Shown: one piece after another, positions 18,305-34,116 of the stretch
Layout of the letters: every line of letters starts with the position of its first letter
Position numbering within the stretch: the stretch's first letter is position 1
Source of the DNA: Sedimentisphaerales bacterium
GTDB lineage: Bacteria > Planctomycetota > Phycisphaerae > Sedimentisphaerales > SM23-30
Length of the DNA: 64,000 bases
NCBI GenBank assembly: GCA_963666285.1
Contig: OY762711.1
Strand: one strand, 5' to 3'
Position numbers and translations under genes: made by a program
Notes under the pieces: generated by a model
What the model saw: only the letters and a program-made list of their open reading frames with translations
Told to the model about the DNA's origin: nothing
The model's database searches: none

Positions 18305-18475
18305 TTAGTTGAATGGGATTGATGCTGCAGTTGATGCAGTAAGCTGATCTTTATCAACCTGGCGAAGATGATCTATGTATTCCTGAAGCTCATATTCATC
18401 AAACTGACTCAAAAAATCTACAGAGGCGGTTGAATTCAGGTTTCTAATCTCTTCAATCAGTTCAAACTTTGTCAT
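18305..18475 (-). CDS. Small 56-aa hypothetical protein absent from the ORF track (MTKFELIEEIRNLNSTASVDFLSQFDEYELQEYIDHLRQVDKDQLTASTAASIPFN)
   Basis: ATG at 18475 with AAAGGGAG RBS, upstream sigma28-like promoter, downstream terminator. Confidence 0.75.
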   Translation of the reverse strand: MTKFELIEEIRNLNSTASVDFLSQFDEYELQEYIDHLRQVDKDQLTASTAASIPFN

Positions 18476-18557
18476 TTTGTACTCCCTTTCTCAAAGAGGG
18501 GTTAATAGATTGTTTATTCTGCTAAGATAAATAACTTACCTCGTTTCTGCAGATTTA

Positions 18558-18847: not shown

Positions 18848-19302
18848 GTAACGTAACATATACAATCTAAAAGCTATTCAAGAGCATATCCAGATTTTCC
18901 CAAAGGACTTATAAAAATTAAACCGGTGAAACTTCCGCGTCTGGAGCGAGTGCGATTATATTCGCACTGCAATTGCCGCGAGTTATTACCGGATAGTCAG
19001 ATAGCGCGGAAATTATTATGACAGGATTATAATTCTGCGACATCTGACTTTTATAATATTCTGCCCTGGATTGGGGCTCCAGCCCTGTGTTTGCCTCCTG
19101 ATGGCTGGGGCCCCTATATCCCTTTGACGCAGAATTAATCATGCATAATACTGCAAGGGTGTTTAAAAAATTGTGCATATGATTCGTTGAAAGGCTTTTG
19201 TATTTTTGATCCTGGAACGCCAAGGGCCGTATAGCCCAAAATAGCGGACGAAAGTTCGTCAAAACCTTGTCATTTTGCCTCCTGAATGACAAGGTTTTTT
19301 TT
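18848..19302 (+). ncRNA. Putative ~450-nt structured non-coding RNA of unknown family
   Basis: Promoter upstream, near-contiguous hairpins from 18932 to 19302, U8 terminator, no credible ORF; G-U pairs favour the + strand. Confidence 0.6.
19261..19302 (+). terminator. Intrinsic terminator with anti-SD loop
   Basis: AAAACCTTGTCATT-ttgcctcctg-AATGACAAGGTTTT followed by a T-run. Confidence 0.8.
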
Positions 19303-19310
19303 ACAGAATT

Positions 19311-19349: not shown

Positions 19350-19679
19350 ATGAAAAAAATAAAAACAGCTTATCAAAGAGTATTATTAGGCGGCACATGG
19401 TATGTAATTGTTGAAGAAGAAGAATTTATTGCATTAACAAACTCAAAAGATGCAAACAGCAAAACAGATATATTAGATGCAATTAATATCAGCGATCAAC
19501 GCCTGGCAAATAGATTACTCCAACGTCGTCAGGATGCAGGAATTAGTCAAAAAGCTTTAGCTCAGCTTGCTGAAGTACGTGTTGAAACACTTAATAGAAT
19601 TGAAAAAGGACATACAACAGCTGATTTCAAAACAATACGTAAGCTGGTAAACGCTATTAACAATTATAATAAAAGGTAA
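19350..19679 (+). CDS. XRE-family HTH regulator (antitoxin-like)
   Basis: RRQDAGISQKALAQLAEVRVETLNRIEKG. Confidence 0.88.
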   Translation: MKKIKTAYQRVLLGGTWYVIVEEEEFIALTNSKDANSKTDILDAINISDQRLANRLLQRRQDAGISQKALAQLAEVRVETLNRIEKGHTTADFKTIRKLVNAINNYNKR

Positions 19680-19685
19680 ATTAAA

Positions 19686-19994
19686 ATGTCGGAAACAACA
19701 AACACTAATATAAAACAGAAAGTCATTAACTTAATTGTAAATAATCACAATGTTGATGCAGAAGAAATATCGCTTAATTCTCATTTTAGCACAGACCTTA
19801 ATTTTGACAGTCTGGAAGTAGTGGAATTTATTATGAACGTCGAAGAAGAATTCAGAATAAATGTGCCAGATGATATCAGCGAAAATATATTAACAGTCAA
19901 AGATGCCATAGAATCAATTGAATCTATAGTACGCTTTCGTTCTTTTGACTGTTCAACGTTATCCGCAAAGGTCAGAACAGGGCCTTGTGAATGA
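19686..19994 (+). CDS. Acyl carrier protein paralog
   Basis: DLNFDSLEVVEFIMNVEEEFRINVPD phosphopantetheine motif; ~20-aa C-terminal extension. Confidence 0.85.
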   Translation: MSETTNTNIKQKVINLIVNNHNVDAEEISLNSHFSTDLNFDSLEVVEFIMNVEEEFRINVPDDISENILTVKDAIESIESIVRFRSFDCSTLSAKVRTGPCE

Positions 19995-20134
19995 AAATTG
20001 TTTTTTTTATCATTTTCGAGGCTAAATCTCGAAAGTATATTTAATTCAAACTGCAACAGGAAGGCCCTTTTAGGCGTTTATTGCAACTTGAAAAGCGCGA
20101 AAGTAAACTTATATTAAAAGAATAATATGCAATT

Positions 20135-20959
20135 CTATAATCTGGCTGCTTTGTAAATAATTATAATTGATACAGAAAACATAAATACAATATATATCAA
20201 TCGCAGTATATCAGATTTAAATATATGGGTCAACTTACTGCCATAATAGCTAGAAATCATCGCTGAAGGAACAATACAAGCAGATATTTTGAGCGATTGA
20301 GATACTTCAAAGCCATGAAGTGGAAGAGTGGCATTTTTATATATTGCTCCGACAAATACAATTCCAAGGATAGTACAAGCAGAATTAGCAATAGCGCTTT
20401 TTAGTGGTACTTTAAAAAATACCTGTTGGAATGGGACACAAATTGACCCTCCACCAATTCCGAGCAGCCCTGAAAAAAGCCCGACAATCCAACCTAAGAT
20501 TATAATACCAATTTTGTTATTATATTTGCCCTCATTATCTTCACTGCCTAATTGAGATTTCTTTTTCATTATTCTGGAAACATTAAAACAAGCAACATAA
20601 AACAAAAAAACGCCAAGCATTATCGACAAATACTTGCCGTTATGCTCAGCAAATAGTTTCTGATTGCTAATATATACGCCTGCAACAACCCCAATAAACG
20701 CGGCAGGCACCATTCTTTTGACAAGTTGCTTGATGACTGCACCAGATTGCCAATGGCTGAATGCCGAGGGAAGTGATACGCAGAAATTGCAAATCATTCC
20801 AACCGCCTGGATCAAATGCTGGGTACGTCCATCATAAGTATGATTAAAACTTGTAATAAGTATTAGCGAGGGGATAACAATAATGGCCCCACCAATACCA
20901 AGCAAGCCTCCAAGTGCTCCAGCCATTAAGCCTATTAAAATGTAAAATATATTTTCCAT
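20135..20959 (-). CDS. TauE/SafE (TSUP) family membrane transporter
   Basis: Two GLLGIGG motifs; multiple TM helices. Confidence 0.88.
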   Translation of the reverse strand: MENIFYILIGLMAGALGGLLGIGGAIIVIPSLILITSFNHTYDGRTQHLIQAVGMICNFCVSLPSAFSHWQSGAVIKQLVKRMVPAAFIGVVAGVYISNQKLFAEHNGKYLSIMLGVFLFYVACFNVSRIMKKKSQLGSEDNEGKYNNKIGIIILGWIVGLFSGLLGIGGGSICVPFQQVFFKVPLKSAIANSACTILGIVFVGAIYKNATLPLHGFEVSQSLKISACIVPSAMISSYYGSKLTHIFKSDILRLIYIVFMFSVSIIIIYKAARL

Positions 20960-21367
20960 CTATAAAATAATATTTGGCATGCCCTTGTCTGGCTTTACCA
21001 TTTAGGGCTATATCGTCCACATAATTTGTTACTTTTCAATGTTATTATGAGAATAGAAACAGTTATGAGTATTATTACGACTGTAATGGCTCATTTATTA
21101 TGACTTATTATAAGGACTGTCTTAAGTCCCATAATATTGTTATAATTCATAAAAGAAAAATATTTTTTATACGCCATTAGTTTTATATTACTTAACTTAT
21201 TTAATAGCAGTACATTAACACCACTTACTTCTAGTGGAATAATCCTAATTAATAACTAGTTAGGAATAGTTAATTTAATAGTTAAAAAAGCCTATATTGA
21301 TAAAAAGCTTGTAAATACTTTATTTATAAATAAGTTACAAACATTACAACCAGTTGAGGCCTCATAA

Positions 21368-24300
21368 ATGATAAAATCGGAAATAGTTTTTGTCATAGCG
21401 ATGATACTATGTCAAATCACCCTTGGTGCAATTTCAGTGACAGCACCTTCCGGGGGCGATCTTGATCAATTCGATTCGTTTTCAATTCAATGGGATAGCG
21501 ATGATGTCGGTGACGGTGCTGCTGTATCAATAATTCTCCGTCAAGGCGGCAGTGATGTGACAACTCTGGCAAGCGGGGTAGGTAACACTGTAGGGTCCAA
21601 TAACTGGAATTGGAATATATCTCAAGCCTCAGGTTCAAACTATAGTATCAGGGTGATTTCAGATTCAAATGGCATGATTTTTGGTGACAGCGCGTCGTTC
21701 AACATAACAGCACCTACTATTACGGCCTCAACAAGTAATATAAATCAATTGGACAATCTCAACGTAAGCTGGTCTGTTACCGGAGTCATAAGTAATAATG
21801 TTACTATCACAATTTCCGAAAATGGTGAATCTGCCAATGTAACTGGCGGTTCAACCAGTTACAATTTTTCAACAGACACGAGCGTTAACTGGAGTCCGGG
21901 AACATATACTATTACTGTCACATCAAATGACCTGCCAACTATAAGTGATTCTGTCACAGCAAATATAAGTGCAAGTAGTATAAGTTCTGTGGCGGCGACA
22001 AGCGGGAACCAGTTTGATACTATTACTGTTACCTGGAATGAAACCGGAACTATAGGAACAAATGTTACTGTCACAGCAATCAATGGTGGTTTTAGTGACT
22101 CAACAACTGTTGCAGCGGGAACCGGTTCTGCAAGTTTTATTACTGACAATACCTGGCCAGCCGGAACATATACTGTAACTGTAACTTCGGACGACTACGG
22201 AATACTAACTGACAATGACACATGTACAATAAGTACAAGTGCGATAAGTTCTGTGGCGGCGACAAGCGGGAACCAGTTTGATACTATTACTGTTACCTGG
22301 AATGAAACCGGAACTATAGGAACAAATGTTACTGTCACGGCAGTCAATGGTGGGTTTAGTGATTCAACAACTGTTGCAGCGGGAACAGGCACAACTAGCT
22401 TTACTACTGACAATACCTGGCCAGCCGGAACATATACTGTAACTGTAACTTCGAACGACTACGGAGTACTAACTGACAATGACACATGTACAATAAGTAC
22501 AAGTGCTATAAGTTCTGTAGCGGCGACAAGCGAGAACCAGTTTGATACTATTACTGTTACCTGGAATGAAACCGGAACTATAGGAACAAATGTTACTGTC
22601 ACAGCGGTCAATGGTGGTTTTAGTGACTCAACAACTGTTGCAGTCGGAACCGGCACAGCAAGTTTTACTACCGACAATACCTGGACGGCTGGAACATACA
22701 CTATCACTGTCACTTCGGACGACTACGGAATACTAACTGACAATGACACATGTACAATAAGTACAAGTGCTATAAGTTCTGTGGCGGCGACAAGCGGAAA
22801 CCAGTTTGATACTATTACTGTTACCTGGAATGAGACAGGAAATGTCGGATCTACAATTACCGTCACGGCAGTCAATGGTGGGTTTAGTGACTCAACAACT
22901 GTTGCAGCCGGAACCGGCACAGCAAGTTTTACTACCGACAATACCTGGCCTGCTGGAACATACACTATCACTGTCACTTCGGACGACTACGGAGTACTAA
23001 CTGACAATGATACATGTACAATAAGTGCAAGTGCTATAAGTTCTGTAGCGGCGACAAGCGAGAACCAGTTTGATACTATTACTGTTACCTGGACTGAAAC
23101 CGGAACTATAGGAACAAATGTTACTGTCACAGCGGTCAATGGTGGGTTTAGTGACTCAACAACTGTTGCAGTCGGAACCGGCACAGCAAGTTTTACTACC
23201 GACAATACCTGGCCGGCTGGAGCATATACTATCACTGTCACATCGGACGACTACGGAGTACTAACTGACAATGACACATGTACAATAAGTACAAGTGCGA
23301 TAAGTTCTGTGGCGGCGACAAGCGGGAACCAGTTTGATACTATTACTGTTACCTGGAATGAAACCGGAACTATTGGAACAAATGTTACTGTCACGGCAGT
23401 CAATGGTGGGTTTAGTGATTCAACAACTGTTGCAGCGGGAACAGGCACAACTAGCTTTACTACTGACAATACCTGGCCAGCCGGAACATATACTGTAACT
23501 GTAACTTCGGACGACTACGGAGTACTAACTGACAATGACACATGTACAATAAGTACAAGTGCGATAAGTTCTGTGGCAGCCGGGAATATTAATCAATTTG
23601 ACAACCTGGCTGTAACTTGGAATGAAACCGGAACTATAGGAACAAATGTTACTGTCACAGCAGTCAATGGTGGTTTTAGTGATTCAACAACAGTTGCAGC
23701 GGGAATCGGCACAGCAAGTCTTACTACCGACAACACCTGGCCGGCTGGAACATATACTGTAACTGTTACTTCGGATACATATGGAGCAATCAGTGATAAT
23801 ATTACTTGCACAATCTCTTTAAGCTCTGTTAATTCTGTATCAGTTGGAAACCTTAATCAGTTTGACGCAATGACAGTTACATGGAATGAGTCAGGAACAA
23901 TTGGTGGTACGGTAACAATTACTGTGGTTAATGGCGGGTTCAGTGATTCAACGACAGTTGCCGCTGGAACCGGTTCTGCAAACTTTGCAACTGACAACAC
24001 CTGGCCGACCGGTATATACACCGCAACAGTAACGTCCGACACCTACGGAGTCTTAACAGACAGCGATACATGTACATTAACTGCCAGCATAATTAGCGCA
24101 GTATCAGCTGCCGATATTGACCAATTCGATAACCTGGCTGTTACCTGGACTGAAACTGGAAATGTCGGATCTACAATTACTGTTACCGCAGTTAATGGCG
24201 GGTTCAGCGACTCGACAACTGTGGCAGCTGGAACAGGGACAACAAGTTTTACTACTGACAATACCTGGCCAACCGGTACATATGCTGTAACTGTTACTTC

Positions 24301-27300
24301 AGATAACTACGGCGTATTAACAGACAATAACACATGTACAATAAGTGCTAGTGCGATAAGCTCTGTGGCAGCCGGGAATATAAACCAATTTGACAACCTG
24401 GCTGTTACATGGACTGAAACAGGAAATATTGGATCTACAATTACTGTTACCGCTGCCAATGGTGGTTTCAGTGATTCAACAACAGTTGCAGCGGGAACTA
24501 ATTCAGCAACATTAGCAACTGACAATACCTGGCCGGTTGGAACATATACTATAACTGTTACTTCCGATGACTATGGAGTTTTAACCGATAGTAACACGTG
24601 TACATTAAGCAAAAGCGCAATTGAAAACATAGCAGCTTCATCAATAAACCAGTTTGACACATTAACGGTCAACTGGACAGAGACAGGAACCCTTGGAACA
24701 ACAGTTAAAGTTACAGCCAGCCAGGGAGGCTTCAGCCAGTCAACCACAGTTGCTGCAGGAACTCTTTCCGCAAGTTTTACAACCGACGATAACTGGGCAA
24801 CAGGAAGTGTTACGATAACAGTTGAGTCAATTACATACCCCCTGGCATCAACAAGCAGTTCAGTAACAATAAATCCTACAGAAGTTAATGTGGCTGCAAT
24901 TACAGGCATAAACCAGTACGACACATTGACTGTCAACTGGACAGAAAGCGGAACAACAGGTGCCAACACAATAGTAACAGTATCAAATGGCGGCTATAGT
25001 CAAAGCAACACTGTTTCTACCGGTACTTTAACAACCTGTTTTGTGACCGATGAAAACTGGCCTGCCGGGACATATACCGTTGAGATAAAACTTACCGACC
25101 ATACTTCTGTAGCAGATAGCACAACTTTTGCCCTGACTGAAACAAACATTGCATTGAACACACCTGCTAATATTAACCAGTATGACAACGTATCATTGAG
25201 CTGGTCTGAATCTGGTTCGCCAGGTACAACTGTAGATATTGTAATTAAACTTGGAGCGTCAACAATCACATCAGACCAGATCGCAGCTGGAACAAATTCA
25301 TGGACTACATCTACAGACCATGCCTGGGCAACCGGAACATACACAGCAATTGTAACATTAACTGACCATACAGTACGAACCAGCACAAAAACTTTTACTA
25401 TTTCAGAAACAAATATAAGCCTTAATCAGCCATCAAACATTAATCAATTTGATAATATATCACTGAACTGGTCATACCTGGGAAGTTACGGCAGTAATGT
25501 CGGTATTGAAATAGTAAGAAACTCTGACAGTACTGTAGTTAACAGCCAAACAATATCGTCAGCAGCAACCACCGCTTCGATAACTACCGACAATTCTGCA
25601 ACCTGGCCTGTCGGCACCTATACTGCCAGAATAACACTTAGCGACCACCCGGCAAGATCATCGACCAAGACATTCACTATATCACAAACAGCGATGCTTG
25701 CAACATCAACATCTGTTGACAATGGTTCAGCTAACCAGCTTGATACAATCACAATCAATTGGAATTCAACGGGAACAATTGGCAACATTGATTTAAAATT
25801 ATATAAAAGCGGAGTGCTTGTGGCCAATATTATTAATGGAACAGGTAATGACGGAATATATAGCTGGAAGATTCCGCTAAGTATAACGCCGGGGACAGGG
25901 TATTATATTCGAGCGGCTTCGTCCCTGAGGCCTACGGTTATATATTTTGATGCTCCACTGCAATTTGCTATTAATGAAACATCTATCACAACAGGAAATA
26001 CATTTGATATTACCCAATTTGACAACCAGACTATAACATGGACATCTACCGGCAGTGTAGGCACAACCGTTACAATTAAAATATTGCGAGCCAGTGGCGA
26101 GACAATAGCAACAGCTAATGGTATCAGTACCGCTTCCGGCAGCTATACTTTCAATTCAGATCTTAGCTGGACATCGGCCAGTAATTATTATGCCAGGATT
26201 GAATCTGAACTGCACAGTGAATGCTATGACAATACTACCGGATACTTCATTGTCAACCCAACAACAATAACCATCACCAGTGCTCCAGATATAGACCAAC
26301 TTGACAGTCAGACAGTAACATGGAATAAAGTGGGTAATGTAGGAACAAATATAACTTTTGAACTATACCTCGGAGCAACTCTGATAGATCAGCAAACAGT
26401 CAGTTCCAACAGTTATACATATTCTACTGACCTTACCTGGACAACAGGTACATATACTATAAAGGTAATATCGCAGGATCACCCGGCAGTAAATGATACT
26501 GAAACTTTCGTACTGGGGCCAACCAAGATTCAACTGTCTGAACCTGTCGAAGATATTTACTGGCAGGCAGGAGCACAACATAGAGTTGGCTGGATATCAC
26601 AAGGAGCAGCTGGTACAAGCCTAACAATCAATCTCTACCAGAACGGCAATCTGATAACAACAATCAGCGGAAACGCTTCAAATGCCGCAGAGGAATTAAT
26701 CTTTACCCTGCCCGGCAGTATTTCACCCGGAGTTTACCAGGTAAAGGTTATATCAAATTCCTATCCACTACTAACAAGCAGCTATAGTTCAAACATAACC
26801 ATAACGGAACAATCTCTCGGCGGTTATATTTTCACTAATGCAAGTGACCCTTACGGCACAGGTTTAAGCGGCGTTACTGTTACGGTAACGGGAACCAACA
26901 GCAGCCAGACAGTTACAACAAACAATATGGGCTACTGGTCAACAGCTCTGTTAGGCAATGATACTTATACAATAAAGCCTACTGCCAGAAGGAGATATTT
27001 TGAAAAGACCGCCAATCCGGATGCCGGAGAGTCTTCAACTACCTTTACACTTAACAGCAGTACCCGCTCAGCCAGTCACAGTATAATGTTCAATAGCGGC
27101 TATAGTATCAAATTTGTTTCTGCCGGTGCAAGCGGTATCGGAAGTTCATGGTCAAACGCTTCCGGCAGCCTGCAGTCAATGATAGACTTTGTCACATCCG
27201 ACCCGGACGATGAGTTTAACGAGGTCTGGGTTGAAAGTGGAAGTTATAGCGGCCCTATTACATTAAGTAATAATGCGACAATAACAGGAAGCTTCAGCGG

Positions 27301-28828
27301 AACAGAAGATCCTATGACTTTTGACATAAATGAAAGAGATTTCATAAACAATCCTTCTATTATTACCGGTGATGGTGGTACCGGACATATAATTGATGGC
27401 TCAGATATAAATGCTACTGTAAACATTAATGGCTTTACAATAAAAAGCGGCAGCGGCAATACCGGAGCGGGATTATACCTGGAAAATGCCAGCGGGCCCG
27501 GTATTTCATTCTGTACATTTTATCAAAACACAGCATCTAACGGCGGGGCAATAACCTGCCTGGAATCTAACCTGACTTTGACCAATACATTATTCTGCGG
27601 TAATACCGCAACGGAAAAAGGCGGGGCAATATATTTAGCTGCCGGTTCTCAATTACATGCTAATAACTGCACATTTTCCGGTAATTTTTCACCCTGGGGA
27701 GGAGGTGCAATACACGCACAACTCAACAGCATGGTCTCATTAAGTAACTGCACCCTGGCAGGAAACCAGTCATATCTATCCGGCGGAATAGAAGCAGCCA
27801 AAAACAGTCCATTATACCTTACAAATTCTCTACTTTACTTCAACTTATCATTTAACGGTCAAACCCTGACCGGACAATATACTACAGATGGAAGCAGCAC
27901 AGTTACAATAAACTCATGTCACATCCAGGGGACTGGGGCGTCAGATCCATTATTTTTGAGTAATCCTGATTCTGGAAACGGTACCTGGGGCGATGGAGAT
28001 GATAACTATGGTGACCTGCATATTAAACCGTCATCACCATGTATTAACCATGGAAACAACATTGACGCCACCGGGCTGGATAGAGATGGTGACACACGCA
28101 TTTATAAAGGCACTATAGATATCGGTAGCGATGAATGTTTATTTGCCACAACCAGTGTAAATAGTGGTGAAGTTGTAACACTAACCCCAACCGGTGAAGG
28201 AACCGGAACTCTTACAGAAGAAACATTCGTAACATTAAATAATACTGCAGGCGGAGATGGTAATAATATCGAAGTAACCCAGATAAATGAAAATATAAAT
28301 CCGACACAATCTTCTTATAAGGTAGTTGGAGCAACCCTGGTTGTCGAAACGGACCTGGCTGACGGTGACTATGTAATGACCCTTGCGATTCCATTTACAA
28401 CTGATGATTTAGCCGGAACCAGCTGGAGTTCAATTGTGCTTTCGTATTACAACACAAGTTCAAGCAGTTGGGTAAATGCGGGAACTGGGTCACAATGGAT
28501 TGAACAGTTAACAAAACCAACCATATCCACCTTACGCAGCAGACCGCTAGGAGATTACGGGGTGTACTGGAACAGCAGCGAACAGAAAGGATTTGCCTGG
28601 GTCAATGTTGACCACACAACAGATTTCGCCCCGATTATCTATCTGAAACCGGGGGACTTCGATCGCAATAATGTAATCGACAAAGATGACCTGGTTAAGA
28701 TGCTTGAAAAATGGATGATTACAAAGGAAAGTTTATACTGGTCAGACAAATATGATTTAGCTGAACCGAAAGATGGAATTATAGATTTACGCGACTTAAG
28801 TGTACTTGCAGAAAACTGGTTAAAATAA
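21368..28828 (+). CDS. Giant secreted surface protein: ~20 Ser/Thr-rich Ig-like repeats, right-handed beta-helix (GGAI repeats), C-terminal dockerin-like EF-hand pair
   Basis: Signal peptide; 88-aa NQFD..W...GTYT.TVTS units; FCGNTA..KGGAIY; GDFDRNNVIDKDDL...DGIIDLRDLSVLAENWL. Confidence 0.85.
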   Translation: MIKSEIVFVIAMILCQITLGAISVTAPSGGDLDQFDSFSIQWDSDDVGDGAAVSIILRQGGSDVTTLASGVGNTVGSNNWNWNISQASGSNYSIRVISDSNGMIFGDSASFNITAPTITASTSNINQLDNLNVSWSVTGVISNNVTITISENGESANVTGGSTSYNFSTDTSVNWSPGTYTITVTSNDLPTISDSVTANISASSISSVAATSGNQFDTITVTWNETGTIGTNVTVTAINGGFSDSTTVAAGTGSASFITDNTWPAGTYTVTVTSDDYGILTDNDTCTISTSAISSVAATSGNQFDTITVTWNETGTIGTNVTVTAVNGGFSDSTTVAAGTGTTSFTTDNTWPAGTYTVTVTSNDYGVLTDNDTCTISTSAISSVAATSENQFDTITVTWNETGTIGTNVTVTAVNGGFSDSTTVAVGTGTASFTTDNTWTAGTYTITVTSDDYGILTDNDTCTISTSAISSVAATSGNQFDTITVTWNETGNVGSTITVTAVNGGFSDSTTVAAGTGTASFTTDNTWPAGTYTITVTSDDYGVLTDNDTCTISASAISSVAATSENQFDTITVTWTETGTIGTNVTVTAVNGGFSDSTTVAVGTGTASFTTDNTWPAGAYTITVTSDDYGVLTDNDTCTISTSAISSVAATSGNQFDTITVTWNETGTIGTNVTVTAVNGGFSDSTTVAAGTGTTSFTTDNTWPAGTYTVTVTSDDYGVLTDNDTCTISTSAISSVAAGNINQFDNLAVTWNETGTIGTNVTVTAVNGGFSDSTTVAAGIGTASLTTDNTWPAGTYTVTVTSDTYGAISDNITCTISLSSVNSVSVGNLNQFDAMTVTWNESGTIGGTVTITVVNGGFSDSTTVAAGTGSANFATDNTWPTGIYTATVTSDTYGVLTDSDTCTLTASIISAVSAADIDQFDNLAVTWTETGNVGSTITVTAVNGGFSDSTTVAAGTGTTSFTTDNTWPTGTYAVTVTSDNYGVLTDNNTCTISASAISSVAAGNINQFDNLAVTWTETGNIGSTITVTAANGGFSDSTTVAAGTNSATLATDNTWPVGTYTITVTSDDYGVLTDSNTCTLSKSAIENIAASSINQFDTLTVNWTETGTLGTTVKVTASQGGFSQSTTVAAGTLSASFTTDDNWATGSVTITVESITYPLASTSSSVTINPTEVNVAAITGINQYDTLTVNWTESGTTGANTIVTVSNGGYSQSNTVSTGTLTTCFVTDENWPAGTYTVEIKLTDHTSVADSTTFALTETNIALNTPANINQYDNVSLSWSESGSPGTTVDIVIKLGASTITSDQIAAGTNSWTTSTDHAWATGTYTAIVTLTDHTVRTSTKTFTISETNISLNQPSNINQFDNISLNWSYLGSYGSNVGIEIVRNSDSTVVNSQTISSAATTASITTDNSATWPVGTYTARITLSDHPARSSTKTFTISQTAMLATSTSVDNGSANQLDTITINWNSTGTIGNIDLKLYKSGVLVANIINGTGNDGIYSWKIPLSITPGTGYYIRAASSLRPTVIYFDAPLQFAINETSITTGNTFDITQFDNQTITWTSTGSVGTTVTIKILRASGETIATANGISTASGSYTFNSDLSWTSASNYYARIESELHSECYDNTTGYFIVNPTTITITSAPDIDQLDSQTVTWNKVGNVGTNITFELYLGATLIDQQTVSSNSYTYSTDLTWTTGTYTIKVISQDHPAVNDTETFVLGPTKIQLSEPVEDIYWQAGAQHRVGWISQGAAGTSLTINLYQNGNLITTISGNASNAAEELIFTLPGSISPGVYQVKVISNSYPLLTSSYSSNITITEQSLGGYIFTNASDPYGTGLSGVTVTVTGTNSSQTVTTNNMGYWSTALLGNDTYTIKPTARRRYFEKTANPDAGESSTTFTLNSSTRSASHSIMFNSGYSIKFVSAGASGIGSSWSNASGSLQSMIDFVTSDPDDEFNEVWVESGSYSGPITLSNNATITGSFSGTEDPMTFDINERDFINNPSIITGDGGTGHIIDGSDINATVNINGFTIKSGSGNTGAGLYLENASGPGISFCTFYQNTASNGGAITCLESNLTLTNTLFCGNTATEKGGAIYLAAGSQLHANNCTFSGNFSPWGGGAIHAQLNSMVSLSNCTLAGNQSYLSGGIEAAKNSPLYLTNSLLYFNLSFNGQTLTGQYTTDGSSTVTINSCHIQGTGASDPLFLSNPDSGNGTWGDGDDNYGDLHIKPSSPCINHGNNIDATGLDRDGDTRIYKGTIDIGSDECLFATTSVNSGEVVTLTPTGEGTGTLTEETFVTLNNTAGGDGNNIEVTQINENINPTQSSYKVVGATLVVETDLADGDYVMTLAIPFTTDDLAGTSWSSIVLSYYNTSSSSWVNAGTGSQWIEQLTKPTISTLRSRPLGDYGVYWNSSEQKGFAWVNVDHTTDFAPIIYLKPGDFDRNNVIDKDDLVKMLEKWMITKESLYWSDKYDLAEPKDGIIDLRDLSVLAENWLK
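21975..24620 (+). repeat. 264-bp intragenic tandem repeats (about 10 copies; first 6-7 near-identical)
   Basis: TAAGTTCTGTRGCRGC recurs at 21981, 22245, 22509, 22773, 23037, 23301 and 23565. Confidence 0.95.
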
Positions 28829-28885
28829 GGAAGGCAAAAGTCAAAAGAGAATACAATTTATAGCAAATATAGGCGAAAAGAATAA

Positions 28886-30970
28886 GTGACAAGGATCAAC
28901 ACAAATATTAATGCTTTGATCGCAAATAACAATGCGGCCAAAGTAGACAACAACCTGCAGAAGACGCTGGAACGTCTATCTACAGGTTTGCGCATAAACA
29001 GCGCAAGTGATGATCCTGCCGGACTGATCGCTTCAGAGAGCTTAAAATCCGAAATAGCCGGCACCAAACAATCAATCGAAAATGCCGAGCGTGCCAGTAA
29101 TATGATAAGCACTGCAGAAGCTGCATTAGCTGAAATTTCTGACATGCTGATTGATATCAAGCAGCTAATCTTAGAAAGTGCCAGCAGCGGGTCTATAAGC
29201 GATGAACAACTGGAAGCTAACCAGATGCAAATAGATTCGTACCTGCAAACAATTAATCGCATCGGTTTATCCACAGAATATAACGGTATCAAATTACTTA
29301 ACGGCGATCAGGATTACAGCGTTTCAGGACAACTTCATTTCGCCGCAACCGATGTAACAGATGCATTAAGTGCAACATTCACATCAGCTTTCAGTATCAC
29401 AGGAATTAAGATCAACAATGGTTATAATGGCATGAACCTGGGCAACTACGATCTGGACGTTAACTTCCTGGTGAGCGGCGTTCAGGCACATTATACCTGG
29501 AGCAGTACGGCTGATTTTATTAACACTTCAAACAATGGCGATAATGCTGCGTTAACAATTACCGGACACAAAGGAACAGCATCAGTTGACTTTAGTGGCG
29601 GGCTCGCAGGAATGGCCAACATTGTAAATGGAATTAACGGAGTTAAGGAAACCACCGGTGTTTCTGCAGGAATCTCCGGTGGAAATCTGGTATTCAGTTC
29701 CACCAACTTCGGCTCAGATGCATTTGTTTCCGTAACCGGTATTGAACCGGCAGAAATAACCTGGACCCCGGATGCATATTTCTTCAGCGGTGCACCTGTC
29801 GGTGACGCAGGTATTACAATTACCGGTAATGATGGACAACATAGCTATTTTGCCGGATACACAAACGCAAATGAACTGGCAACAATGATCAATAATGATG
29901 CTGCAATAACCGGTGTTATGGCACGGGTAGACGGTTCAGATATGATAATTTATTCAGCAGACCAGAACGGATCGGCTAATATTTCGGTCAGCAAATTCGC
30001 AACATATTTAGATAACGGTAGTTTTGCTAACGGTTCTGCTGCAAGCTATGCCTGGAATTCCGTTAGCGATTACATCGGTGTATTAGCTGACAGCGATGGT
30101 GAACTGAATGTACGCGGCATAAACGGTTCTGTTACTATTAATCTTTCAAGTGGAACCTGGACAGAAGCTGCATTGGCTGCAGAAATAAATAATCATACCG
30201 GGTCAACCGGTGTTACGGCTAGCAGCGGATCCGGAACGTTAACTCTAACATCTACCGACGGCAGTGGTGCTAACTTTGTATTTGCTAACGCTACTGACAG
30301 TTTTTCAGATACGATAACAGCCCAATCTTATTCTGCTGCGGGTACCGGATATGCTATCGGCTATAGCGGAGCTGATTATATTACCAGCGGTAGTGAAATG
30401 TTTGATATCGCAGAAATTACTCTTTCCGGCTTTGATGGAATTATAGCCGACGGCGCCGGTGAAACTCAACAGTTCTATGCGGCTACACGAGCAAGTGCCT
30501 CACTTAACGGGTCCAACCTGACCGGTTCCGGAGGAATGGAATTCAACATTGACTCCAGTGTACCAAATTCAATTGACAGTATTTGTGGCATACCGGAAAT
30601 CAGTACAACAAATTTAGGTAATAGCGAGTATGGAACACTAAACGATCTGCTTTCCGGTAATTCAAGTTCAATGAAAGAAGGTAAATTTAATACTGCAACC
30701 AATATTGTTGATACTGCTGCCAAACAGATAAACAACTTACGCGGCAGGTTGGGGACATTCAAGAAATATACACTGGAAACTACCATTCGATCACAACGAA
30801 ATAAACTTGAAAACCTGGTCAGTGCAGAATCTGCAATATTTGACGCTGACTTTGCCAAGGAGATATCTGAACTAACCAGAAACCAGATATTAAAACAAAG
30901 TGGAATATTTATACAACAGGTTATTAACATGCAACACAATAATGTCTTGAAACTATTAGAATCAATTTAA
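28886..30970 (+). CDS. fliC: Flagellin-family protein with a large variable central domain
   Basis: MTRINTN, LERLSTGLRINSASDDPAGL, LRGRLG, AESAIFDADFAKEISELTRNQIL; three IN-type hook motifs (IN...TGV.A). Confidence 0.9.
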   Translation: MTRINTNINALIANNNAAKVDNNLQKTLERLSTGLRINSASDDPAGLIASESLKSEIAGTKQSIENAERASNMISTAEAALAEISDMLIDIKQLILESASSGSISDEQLEANQMQIDSYLQTINRIGLSTEYNGIKLLNGDQDYSVSGQLHFAATDVTDALSATFTSAFSITGIKINNGYNGMNLGNYDLDVNFLVSGVQAHYTWSSTADFINTSNNGDNAALTITGHKGTASVDFSGGLAGMANIVNGINGVKETTGVSAGISGGNLVFSSTNFGSDAFVSVTGIEPAEITWTPDAYFFSGAPVGDAGITITGNDGQHSYFAGYTNANELATMINNDAAITGVMARVDGSDMIIYSADQNGSANISVSKFATYLDNGSFANGSAASYAWNSVSDYIGVLADSDGELNVRGINGSVTINLSSGTWTEAALAAEINNHTGSTGVTASSGSGTLTLTSTDGSGANFVFANATDSFSDTITAQSYSAAGTGYAIGYSGADYITSGSEMFDIAEITLSGFDGIIADGAGETQQFYAATRASASLNGSNLTGSGGMEFNIDSSVPNSIDSICGIPEISTTNLGNSEYGTLNDLLSGNSSSMKEGKFNTATNIVDTAAKQINNLRGRLGTFKKYTLETTIRSQRNKLENLVSAESAIFDADFAKEISELTRNQILKQSGIFIQQVINMQHNNVLKLLESI

Positions 30971-30998
30971 TGAGTTTGGGTATTATTACAAACAACAA

Positions 30999-31097
30999 CC
31001 GAAATTAGGATATAGCCGGCTTCTCTACTGTGGATGCTGAGGCCTCAACTGTTTTTCATTAGCACCCCCAGTGGAGTTCCGGCATATCCCGATTCGG
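30999..31097 (+). other. Long irregular RNA hairpin downstream of flagellin
   Basis: Stems CCGAA/TTCGG, GGATAT/ATATCC, GCCGG/CCGGC, CTCTACTG/CAGTGGAG, TGCTGA/TTAGCA; loop GGCCTCAACTGTTTTTCA. Confidence 0.7.
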
Positions 31098-31405
31098 AAA
31101 TAAAAAAGAATAAATTTTCATTGGTACAAAATGCATAAATGCAACCAAGGAGATTATATTTGACAGCATTTAATTACTACAATTGAATATTAGAGCAATT
31201 TAATTTTTCGTGTTCGCTTTTTGCCTGTTGCGGCTTCAGCTGACTTCATCAGAAATACTCATAATATATCAATATTCCTGTGTTTTCTTCTTCATCAGCC
31301 TCGTCCTCACAGAGGCATAAATCGGAACAGAAAATATTAAAGTGCTCTATTCGCAGTGACTGAAAGGCGATTGGTTTTGACTTACACAATATAAAAGGGT
31401 CGGCC

Positions 31406-33508
31406 TCAACTGACATCAATCAGACCCAGACACTGGCTGTAACGAGCAAACATATCCCTTTTCAGCGCTGCGAATTTACTATCAGACAGATCAGGATCGT
31501 CTGCAATAATAGACTCTGCGTCTCGACGAGCCATTCTTAGCAGATCAAAATCCTTAGTCAGATCAGCAATCTTGAGACCGGGCAAACCATGTTGACTGGT
31601 GCCAAAAAATTGGCCCGGACCGCGGATACTAAGATCAGCTTCTGCGATTTTGAATCCATCATTGGTTTCTGTCATGATTTCCAATCTGCGGCGGGAATCT
31701 TCACTGCGCGGATTGCCAAATAACAAACAGTAAGACTGTTCATCGCCTCTTCCGATACGGCCGCGAAGCTGATGAAGCTGTGCCAGACCATATCGGTCAG
31801 CATGTTCGATCACCATTACGGTAGCGTTCGGAACATTGACACCAACTTCAATAACTATCGTTGATACCAGGATATCTATCTGCCCGGAAGAAAACTGAGC
31901 CATAACCTGTTTTTTTTCGTCAGTCGGCATCTGCCCGTGCAATAATCCTACTTTGAGGTCAGGAAAAATCCTGGTCTGCAAATACTTATGTTCATCAACA
32001 GCAGCTTTTAACTGTTGAACAGGATCAAGAAAAGGGTCGGCTTCCTCTACCTGTTCCTGCTCGATTCTCGGATACACAAAATATGCCTGCCGGCCCTGCT
32101 GCACCAGCCTGCGTATGCCGCGATAGGCCTCCTGCAGTTTTTCATCCCGCACCCATCTGGTTGTAACCGGTTTTCGTCCGGGTGGCAGTTTATCTATTAC
32201 CGAAACATCCAGATCGCCAAAAACTGTCATAGCTAAAGTGCGAGGTATCGGCGTAGCAGTCATAACCAGATAATGAGGGGCTATGCCTTTTGATCGAAAT
32301 GTTTCACGCTGCCGAACACCAAATTTATGCTGCTCATCTACCACCACCAAACCCAACTCGTTAAAAGCAACATCTTTCTGGAGCAAAGCCTGGGTACCTA
32401 CTACAATGTCTATTTTACCGGAACTGATCTCAGCCAGAAACTCTTTTCTTTCGTTACCTGTTATCCCGCCTTTCAACAATGCTATATTAACCTGACTTTG
32501 GCTAAGGTGTTTTATCAGCTCATTATAATGCTGTTCAGCCAGTATTTCAGTCGGCGCCATTATAGCTGCCTGCTTACGATTGGCAATCGTCAACAATGCT
32601 GCGTAAAGTGCAACTACCGTTTTACCAGAGCCAACATCTCCCTGGAGCAAACGATTCATCGGTTCACCGCGAGACATATCAGAAACAATATCAGATACAA
32701 CCTTATCCTGGGCTTCAGTAAAGTCAAACGGGAAAAGCCTGCGTATCCTTTTATCAATTTCTTCTGTATTCGGCAGCGGCCATGCCGGAAGTGTATGACG
32801 ATTTTTCGATTTTCGCAAAGCAACCGCCAGCTGCATCTGCAGCAGCTCATCGTAAGCCAGGGAACGTCTGGCCTGTTTACTGCAATCCTCATCTTCTGGA
32901 AAATGTATCCATTGGTAAGCTTCTTTACGAGACGGCAATTTTCGCTGAGCCAGGTATTCCTCAGGATAATATTCTTCGACCAGTTCAATAAGATCATCAA
33001 ATGAACTGCGAATAATTCGCAGTATATCAGCACTGCTCAACTCCGCGGTTGCCGGATATCTGCTGCGAACAATGCCATCAGCGGCAAGATACTCATCAAC
33101 ATCATCAACTTTTTGCCACAATGGATTAACCAGCTGAAGTTTTTTCTTATATTCCGCTATTTTTCCCCATGCTGCGATTATATCACCTGGAAAAATCTTT
33201 TCTCGAATATACCCGGCATTAAACCAGGTAAGTTTAAAGTGACCATCAGCATCTTCTATCTCCATGTCCAACCTGGGAGGACGGCTTCTCCGATTAAATT
33301 GCAGATTCAGTACCTCACCAACAACTGTAACACTGGCATCTTTATATAACTCGCCCGTTCGCATAATCGGCGGCTGAAAATCATAACCTCTGGGGAAATG
33401 ATCCAGTAAATCAGCAACTGTACTTATACCGAGCTTCATAAAATATTCCGCCCGGTGAGGACCTACCCCCTTGAGATATTGTATAGCTGTATCTTTCGTT
33501 AATGACAT
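31406..33508 (-). CDS. recG: ATP-dependent DNA helicase RecG
   Basis: LQGDVGSGKT, DEQHKFG, MTATPIPRTL, QLHQLRGRIGRG. Confidence 0.97.
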   Translation of the reverse strand: MSLTKDTAIQYLKGVGPHRAEYFMKLGISTVADLLDHFPRGYDFQPPIMRTGELYKDASVTVVGEVLNLQFNRRSRPPRLDMEIEDADGHFKLTWFNAGYIREKIFPGDIIAAWGKIAEYKKKLQLVNPLWQKVDDVDEYLAADGIVRSRYPATAELSSADILRIIRSSFDDLIELVEEYYPEEYLAQRKLPSRKEAYQWIHFPEDEDCSKQARRSLAYDELLQMQLAVALRKSKNRHTLPAWPLPNTEEIDKRIRRLFPFDFTEAQDKVVSDIVSDMSRGEPMNRLLQGDVGSGKTVVALYAALLTIANRKQAAIMAPTEILAEQHYNELIKHLSQSQVNIALLKGGITGNERKEFLAEISSGKIDIVVGTQALLQKDVAFNELGLVVVDEQHKFGVRQRETFRSKGIAPHYLVMTATPIPRTLAMTVFGDLDVSVIDKLPPGRKPVTTRWVRDEKLQEAYRGIRRLVQQGRQAYFVYPRIEQEQVEEADPFLDPVQQLKAAVDEHKYLQTRIFPDLKVGLLHGQMPTDEKKQVMAQFSSGQIDILVSTIVIEVGVNVPNATVMVIEHADRYGLAQLHQLRGRIGRGDEQSYCLLFGNPRSEDSRRRLEIMTETNDGFKIAEADLSIRGPGQFFGTSQHGLPGLKIADLTKDFDLLRMARRDAESIIADDPDLSDSKFAALKRDMFARYSQCLGLIDVS

Positions 33509-33579
33509 ATGATTCTATAATGAAAAAAGCCTGCAAAAAATACAGGCTATTCTAAACTAGTTCTATCTAATCCATACTG

Positions 33580-34116
33580 CTATTGACCATTCTGAATATC
33601 ATCTTCTGTATTTTCTGAAGAAGCGGCATTTTCAGACAGGTCTTTTTTTTCATTTTTGCCTGTAAGATTTAGAATCTCATCTAAAACTCCATCGACATCA
33701 TCGTAAACAGAATCTTTGAGCTTAAGAGTTTTGGTTTCTCCATTTGCCTCAAAATCAATAAGTAGCTTACCGCTGGATTTCAATTTACTTTTATCAATTT
33801 TAGTCAGACTGTCAAGCGGTATTACAGTTCCATCTTCAAAAGAAAGACCATTTTCGTCAACAGTCAGCTTCCTGCGTGATAAAGCAAACGCTGCATACCC
33901 AAACCATATCGCACCAGCAACACAGCTAATTGGCCCCCATGTCTTATTAATCTGTAAGGTGATATTTGGTGTACCGTCCTCTCGAGTATTCTCTTTGATA
34001 AATTCTTCTTTATAGTAGCCGTCATATAACAGCCATAAGGTACACGCCAGGCATACTACTATATAAATATAATTCATTTTCATTGCATACCCGCTTGGTC
34101 CGGTTGTCAAAGCCAT
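33580..34116 (-). CDS. Hypothetical membrane protein (2 TM plus PH-like domain)
   Basis: Two hydrophobic segments; AGGAG RBS; position in the - strand gene run. Confidence 0.7.
   Translation of the reverse strand: MALTTGPSGYAMKMNYIYIVVCLACTLWLLYDGYYKEEFIKENTREDGTPNITLQINKTWGPISCVAGAIWFGYAAFALSRRKLTVDENGLSFEDGTVIPLDSLTKIDKSKLKSSGKLLIDFEANGETKTLKLKDSVYDDVDGVLDEILNLTGKNEKKDLSENAASSENTEDDIQNGQ

Follow-up and report, generated by a model that had tools for sequence, protein, structure and literature searches.

The question that this locus raises is whether a hairpin behind the last gene of an operon could regulate the ribosome-binding site (RBS) of the first. The locus belongs to a Sedimentisphaerales bacterium, and the window (the whole stretch of DNA that was analysed, 64,000 nucleotides of contig OY762711.1 in assembly GCA_963666285.1) carries there a gene for a giant surface protein, a gene for a large flagellin, which we assign to clade L, and a hairpin that contains the exact reverse complement of the RBS of the giant gene. 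The features that carry the argument are as follows:

21351..21364, + strand: 14-nt target over the RBS of the giant gene, which covers the Shine-Dalgarno (SD) sequence GAGG (21356-21359), ends 3 nt before the ATG and contains a 10-nt palindrome
21368..28828, + strand: gene for the giant secreted surface protein (2,486 aa; ATG at 21368), with a signal-peptide-like N terminus and Ig-like repeats
28886..30970, + strand: gene for the large clade-L flagellin (694 aa), with a GTG start and no clear SD
30999..31097, + strand: irregular 99-nt hairpin (~34 bp; 18-nt loop at 31041-31058), which starts 28 nt after the flagellin stop
31038..31051, + strand: anti-RBS 14-mer, the exact reverse complement of 21351..21364

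The first-pass annotation had described this arrangement, and its description holds: the two 14-mers are exact reverse complements, the upstream one spans the SD and ends just before the start codon, and the downstream one lies mostly in the apical loop of the hairpin, with 11 nt in the loop and 3 nt in the stem. The match is not extendable on either side, and both 14-mers occur nowhere else in the 6.35-Mb genome. The giant gene and the clade-L flagellin are likely co-transcribed as a two-gene operon, as judged from the 57-nt gap between them, which corresponds to 8 nt in the relative G001. The hairpin has a predicted energy of -44.6 kcal/mol (z -5.92) and was equalled in stability by 0 of 200 shuffles; the predicted fold places 31038-31040 in base pairs of the upper stem and leaves 31041-31051 largely single-stranded (probability of being unpaired 0.59-1.00). 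With 18 nt, its loop exceeds in size every loop among the 27 other best flagellin tail hairpins listed (12 nt or less), and its G-U content, as a guide to the strand, is 3 vs 2. Because no U-run stands behind the stem on the + strand, the hairpin is not a classical terminator of the operon, and the terminator scan made no call there. Rfam gave 0 matches in the window at the gathering threshold, with sub-threshold noise only for 30900-31450; a full-length second copy was not found in the same genome, where BLAST matches reached at most 22 nt, nor were homologues of the hairpin found in the genomes G001-G003 (best E 0.19).

The reading that we favour, and to which we give about an even chance of being right, is that the hairpin would survive as a 3' fragment of the mRNA, whose loop would pair with the first RBS of the operon and damp its translation. 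RNase E/G might cut in the A-rich linker, and 3' trimming to the stem would leave the hairpin as a decay-resistant fragment. Pairing in trans, on the RBS of new transcripts, would begin in the loop and then invade 3 bp of the stem, by which initiation on the giant gene would be blocked and the flagellin would also be lowered via likely translational coupling and Rho polarity. Long-range pairing within one transcript is less likely, since translation can start 9.7 kb before the 3' end has been transcribed. Opening the 11 loop nucleotides is predicted to cost 0.6 kcal/mol vs -19.8 for the duplex, and opening all 14 nt to cost 5.5 vs -25.9, with a further 2.9-4.1 kcal/mol for opening the RBS. Nested co-folding of the leader and the hairpin gave no gain, which says nothing of this pairing because the loop-RBS duplex is a pseudoknot, a structure beyond the reach of the program. 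The genome encodes RNase E/G, RNase III, and Rho. When the clade-L tail was compared with the 6 flagellin leaders of its own genome, no match above 9 nt was found.

The length of the match alone is no evidence, because the window holds 19 exact inverted matches of at least 14 nt (18 of them distant); as the first-pass annotation had cautioned, such matches are expected by chance and it is the position that counts. Position was assessed on contig C1 of the source genome, for which our own simple gene caller gave 4,345 genes and 4,343 start regions, with tests that were designed after the match had been seen. Among 2,210 pairs of an operon's first RBS with its own tail, the 14-nt match is the longest, and shuffled pairings of first RBS and tail gave ~0.2 matches of at least 14 nt per genome, partly from repeats. 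A census of hairpins (+ strand folds in gaps of 90-1,500 nt; longer gaps, 13 of them in the second half of the contig and others in the first, were skipped) found 316 long unbranched intergenic hairpins, 169 of them single- or low-copy, and 20 of the latter had a loop of at least 10 nt. Within these 20 the clade-L tail hairpin reached 14 nt and the next 9, while 1,200 shifted draws reached at most 11. The best target of the loop among the 4,343 start regions is the first gene of its own operon (-27.5 vs -22.0 kcal/mol for the next), which also leads when the loop only is ranked (-22.0 vs -20.0 kcal/mol). Analytically, the chance for one loop against one RBS is 3-4e-7; scaled by ~30 large loops and a few candidate genes, it becomes, by our estimate, ~5e-5 per genome. 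A scan of 250,000 windows would be expected to yield of the order of 0.1-1 such cases, depending on how widely 'interesting' is drawn.

A contig of a related strain from another study (X4) spans 30923-31190; it has 7 substitutions and 1 insertion there, none of them within the hairpin. The changes fall on 0 of 99 hairpin nucleotides vs 8 of 121 flanking non-coding ones (Fisher p 0.009), and the RBS region is unchanged as well. The unchanged hairpin points to a function for it, as far as a single low-depth contig, whose differences may be errors, can indicate one.

Another flagellin tail of the same genome provides a precedent:

C1:154088-154147: antisense element in the tail of the clade-B flagellin, facing the clade-A flagellin RBS at C1 ~5894285-5894305

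In the flagellin set (72 genes from 24 genomes of the family), clade B is the flagellin that stands behind fliW-csrA in the source genome, and the antisense lies at the 5' arm of its terminator. The tails of 22 of 23 clade-B flagellins (the exception being G017) are antisense to the nearly invariant RBS of clade-A flagellins. Both flagellins occur in 19 genomes, and a run of 14 consecutive positions is paired in every one of these, with 21 G-U wobbles and 0 mismatches, although seven of these positions were fixed on both sides by the search patterns and the remainder on one side. Two-sided changes were seen in G006 and G014. Clade A was assigned by its leader motif, and 20 of 21 members form one clade in the tree. 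Cognate pairs were better than permuted ones only modestly (39 of 2,000 permutations did as well), and the terminator stem also constrains part of the element. In the source genome the match is 15 nt, exact, and ranks 1 of 4,343 start regions; a model built without the source genome finds its copy there (E 2e-12), and is positive in 3 of 141 genomes of the class, all of this family and two of them in the training set. Since flagellin tails here carry a long exact anti-RBS, the prior for the clade-L hairpin was raised. In genus g1, 9 nt of the clade-B element are complementary to its own RBS as well.

According to the accessible part of the source, FlaX of Vibrio cholerae is a ProQ-associated RNA from a flagellin 3' untranslated region (UTR) that represses mainly flaB, at three sites (PMC11879080). 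To the extent that this account describes FlaX, the clade-L hairpin resembles it as an RNA from a flagellin 3' UTR that is predicted to block a ribosome-binding site, and differs from it in its putative target, the non-flagellin surface protein of its own operon, and in having one site. The clade-B tail element is, on the same partial account, the closer FlaX analogue, and as a putative FlaX-like element it is better supported than the clade-L hairpin finding.

Downstream of the hairpin lie recG and two further features:

31406..33508, - strand: recG, convergent with the operon in all 3 genomes that have the clade-L flagellin
31402..31412, + strand: third copy, 11 nt of the 14-mer as a direct repeat of the loop, which overlaps the recG stop codon
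31191..31347, no strand assigned: insertion of 157 bp that resembles a miniature inverted-repeat transposable element (MITE), with 25-nt terminal inverted repeats and TA ends

The third copy, which the first-pass annotation had overlooked, is unchanged in X4. Besides it, no second pairing site above 9 nt was found. Copies of the 11-mer number 5 in the genome, 3 of them within the operon's 10 kb, and the chance of a third copy is ~1.6e-3. It could represent a further anti-RBS stretch on a read-through transcript or a DNA site in common, or it could be luck to which the end sequence of recG contributed. The MITE-like insertion (28 BLAST rows) is unrelated to the hairpin; X4 is without it, and the joint there skips 157 nt, as an empty site would. 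A second dispersed MITE-like family lies at ~19927-20114 (191 BLAST rows), and joints in the contigs point to an occasional link between the two families. The MITEs were considered as ends of a composite element and rejected as such, as the two repeats are not alignable to each other and X4 is without the right one.

Several results weigh against feedback by the hairpin, among them those from the relatives. The variable region of the clade-L flagellin occurs in 3 of 401 genomes of the order (the source genome, G001, and G002); a search of genome contigs gave orthologues only in G001 and G002, and metagenome scans gave none apart from one weak 34% fragment. G001 has the whole operon, with a giant-protein orthologue of 41-47% identity, and its RBS has an 8-nt core in common with the 14-mer of the window and keeps 9 of the 10 palindrome nucleotides. 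No comparable hairpin was found behind its flagellin (best windows z -2.4 and -3.3; -30 and -25 kcal/mol), where a 108-aa open reading frame (ORF) lies on the opposite strand without a Pfam match at 1e-5. The complement of the G001 RBS occurs as an 11-mer only at the RBS itself, and as a 10-mer at one further place, within coding sequence. In G002 the gap after the flagellin measures 167 nt and holds a different, short GC-rich hairpin (z -1.3), and the giant gene was not found in this genome, which is 72% complete and whose contig ends inside the flagellin. Since the paralogue tree makes near sisters of G001 and G002, they count as one comparison, and the hairpin appears either to have been gained in the source lineage or to have been lost in theirs. 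With no such hairpin in the orthologues there is no loop-RBS covariation, and the compensatory changes for which the first-pass annotation had suggested looking have no hairpin loop there in which to show: G001 keeps most of the RBS sequence without the hairpin.

The conservation of the RBS could also be accounted for without the hairpin, because cis pairing in the leader could explain it:

21290..21299, + strand: part of the leader for which weak cis pairing with the SD region is predicted

For G001 a stronger counterpart of this pairing is predicted, and both leaders are predicted to pair the SD with a segment 60-80 nt upstream. The leader fold is not significant in the window (z -0.25 to -0.67); in G001, z is -2.4 for one segment and -1.0 for a longer one. 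Further points on the same side are that X4 is a single contig of depth 2.6 and that an 18-nt loop would stay unchanged in it under neutrality with p 0.29; that no PF17209 match, as a sign of Hfq, was found in the genome, which is 97% complete (the control was positive in 5 of 14 genomes); that 14-nt complements between an RBS and intergenic sequence within 20 kb number 2 genome-wide vs 2.6 expected; and that the feedback model does not account for the third copy at the recG stop. A general genome-wide system of RBS-to-tail pairing was rejected for want of enrichment. Of the 3'-UTR feedback that the first-pass annotation had proposed, what stands is the positional statistics, the hairpin unchanged in X4, and the precedent of the clade-B tail; the orthologous operon, being without the hairpin, does not bear it out.

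These results have to be weighed together with three other explanations. That the hairpin serves as an ordinary stabiliser of the 3' end, or as an insulator separating the convergent flagellin and recG transcripts, with the loop match a rare coincidence of a very large scan, is a real possibility, although we give it clearly less than an even chance. The 316 long intergenic hairpins on C1 show how common such structures are in this genome; long hairpins also stand behind clade-C and clade-E flagellins, and long tail hairpins that lack such loops are common in the family, which counts against the feedback too. The orthologues without the match and the absence of genome-wide enrichment fit this explanation, and the conservation of the stem in X4 needs only a structural role. 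Stem-loops of the SRPS type (for selective RNA processing and stabilization) are, moreover, a known class: as far as the accessible parts of the sources go, the operon 3' stem-loops described there act through stability, and RBS pairing is not mentioned in those parts (PMC4423207, PMC8219983). By that partial account, the likeness is that a gene in a surface-complex operon bears a strong stem-loop at its 3' end, by which the upstream transcript could be stabilised. Coincidence, however, has to bear the ~5e-5 per genome, or 0.1-1 over the whole scan, estimated above, and has to accept a loop exceeding those of all the other best tail hairpins listed.

A cause at the level of DNA, either a binding site of a regulator that acts as a dimer (the 10-nt palindrome) or scars that local duplication or template switching left behind, would explain the three copies and make RNA pairing incidental; we regard it as improbable, and it is retained because the third copy is without explanation. 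Three of the five genomic copies of the 11-mer do stand in one 10-kb stretch, 10 of the 14 nt are palindromic (as the first-pass annotation had pointed out) and largely kept in the G001 RBS, and the flagellin-recG gap, with different content in all three genomes, is prone to insertion. The palindrome, however, stands at 3 genomic sites and shows no excess (6 strand counts vs 4.0 expected), G001 has no downstream copy, 6 of the 11 nt of the third copy belong to a shared recG end sequence, and the flanks of the three copies are dissimilar. The alternative that the first-pass annotation had raised, namely that the 14-bp inverted repeats bound an invertible cassette which flips both genes away from their promoter, found no backing and is very improbable. 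It is true that the repeats are exact, unique in the genome, and flank exactly both genes, and that inversion would leave the SD intact. The contigs listed run unbroken and in the window's orientation across 21351-21364 (X1, X2, X3, and X4) and across 31038-31051 (X1, X2, and X4), which makes 3 samples, since X1 and X2 come from a single one that may be the source; rare variants, though, are lost in contigs. No strand-changing joints appeared in 15 of the 18 matches listed or in the X4 comparison, and no recombinase family was found among the 41 of 68 window ORFs that were scanned. G001 and G002 have the same orientation to recG, G001 without the second repeat, and inversion would destroy the hairpin conserved in X4.

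The system to which the feedback by the hairpin would be most akin is CarZ of Vibrio cholerae, which, like OppZ of the same species, is an autoregulatory small RNA derived from a 3' UTR. In the portion of the paper that was available, an RNA that comes from the carA operon's 3' UTR pairs with the translation-initiation region of its first gene, which results in negative feedback and in Rho polarity; an alignment of CarZ across Vibrio species is given, and for OppZ intramolecular long-range pairing is excluded (PMC7398697). Both RNAs are Hfq-bound and excised by RNase E, and they end in a Rho-independent terminator, the last according to a figure legend on CarZ (PMC7398697). As far as these excerpts allow a comparison, the hairpin is like CarZ in its location in the 3' UTR of an operon and in its complement to the first initiation region of the same operon. 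By the same excerpts it differs in that its genome has no detected Hfq, the seed occupies the apical loop of a hairpin of 99 nt that has no U-run, 9.7 kb separate the hairpin from its putative target, and the element is found in one species only and known from sequence and predicted fold. By the tests run, the tail hairpin is not a member of the Hfq-dependent CarZ/OppZ class: no Hfq, no terminator, and no conservation across species.

Nearer at hand, the clade-B and clade-C tails come from the same genome or family and also lie in flagellin 3' UTRs, the former with an anti-RBS and the latter with a long irregular hairpin; unlike the clade-L hairpin, they are conserved across genera, and they have a different target. 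Covariance models of both tail families did not detect the clade-L hairpin, which is thus not homologous to them. For clade C, MAFFT set the stem in register, yet model R2 gave no match with E up to 10 and filters off, a test limited by the 67 positions of the model against the 99 nt of the hairpin. A literature search, covering few subscription papers, returned no account of a flagellin-tail anti-RBS RNA in Planctomycetes, Phycisphaerae, or Sedimentisphaerales.

The first-pass annotation had also likened the hairpin to another RNA of the window:

19056-19125 and 19261-19305, + strand: 19-kb small RNA, family-wide, with no Rfam family

This RNA consists of a 5' segment that is conserved and a hairpin whose loop reads CCUCCU; in the alignment from 13 genomes, 11 of 18 predicted pairs show a two-sided change. 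The likeness is superficial: the 19-kb RNA is a shorter, family-conserved element, the clade-L hairpin has neither its 5' segment nor its loop, and no BLAST match connects it with the hairpin region. As regulators of the giant gene, the clade-B tail and the 19-kb RNA were both rejected (ranks 103-1,288 of 4,343). The source genome (G000), G001, and G003 have a second terminator hairpin, in which the loop of the 19-kb RNA recurs on an unrelated stem. The 5' segment (19055-19070) has a 13-nt complement just before the start of a PilB/GspE-type ATPase gene (C1:6122923); the source genome, G001, and G002 keep this complement, whereas it is missing from that position in G003 and, apparently, in the other genera (25 loci).

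The tails of other flagellins in the family are structured as well. Those of clade A (~300 nt; C1 ~5895770-5896085 in the source genome) are GC-rich, have motifs common across genera, and are probably a large structured RNA; several carry a 9-12-nt complement to their own leader. The clade-C tails of other genera are long irregular hairpins with a common stem motif and often C-rich loops, and the clade-C tail model found no copy in the source genome. A short recurring motif, seen by eye in the flagellin tails of relatives, might mark antisense promoters, as on the opposite strand it resembles what we take to be a flagellar-sigma -10 element.

Upstream of the operon, one promoter candidate was noted:

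21215..21243, + strand: candidate sigma-70-type promoter of the operon (10/12, extended -10; weak)

It can count only as a candidate, as the upstream region has 42 promoter-like matches vs 40.1 expected. For an internal flagellar promoter of the hairpin, a sigma-28-like pattern that is not validated for this lineage gave 0 + strand matches in 25830-33999. Between the 19-kb RNA and the giant gene (19350-20959) lie helix-turn-helix, acyl-carrier-like, and TauE genes that are absent there in G001, and a small ORF of <100 aa at ~18320-18476 (- strand) is kept in G001 at 77% nucleotide identity. The giant surface protein has a weak PMP-repeat match and, as judged by eye, a dockerin-like end; the clade-L flagellin, with its large variable domain, is coupled to this giant Ig-repeat secreted protein and was found in only 3 of the 401 genomes searched.

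Taken as a whole, we propose tentatively, and with less confidence than we have in the feedback by the hairpin, that Sedimentisphaerales may run an Hfq-free RNA network from flagellin 3' ends, in which an ancient clade-B tail would silence the clade-A flagellin and a young autoregulatory hairpin would count finished 9.6-kb operon transcripts and shut the first RBS. If the match is chance, the hairpin would be an ordinary mRNA end structure. If the reading is true, it would extend CarZ-type 3'-UTR autoregulation to a phylum with little described RNA regulation and to a genome without detected Hfq; the loop of an antisense-style hairpin would replace the chaperone-bound seed, and the locus would be an example of a recently gained pair of small RNA and target. 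The firmer side finding is the putative FlaX-like element of a flagellin hierarchy, which is conserved across the whole family.

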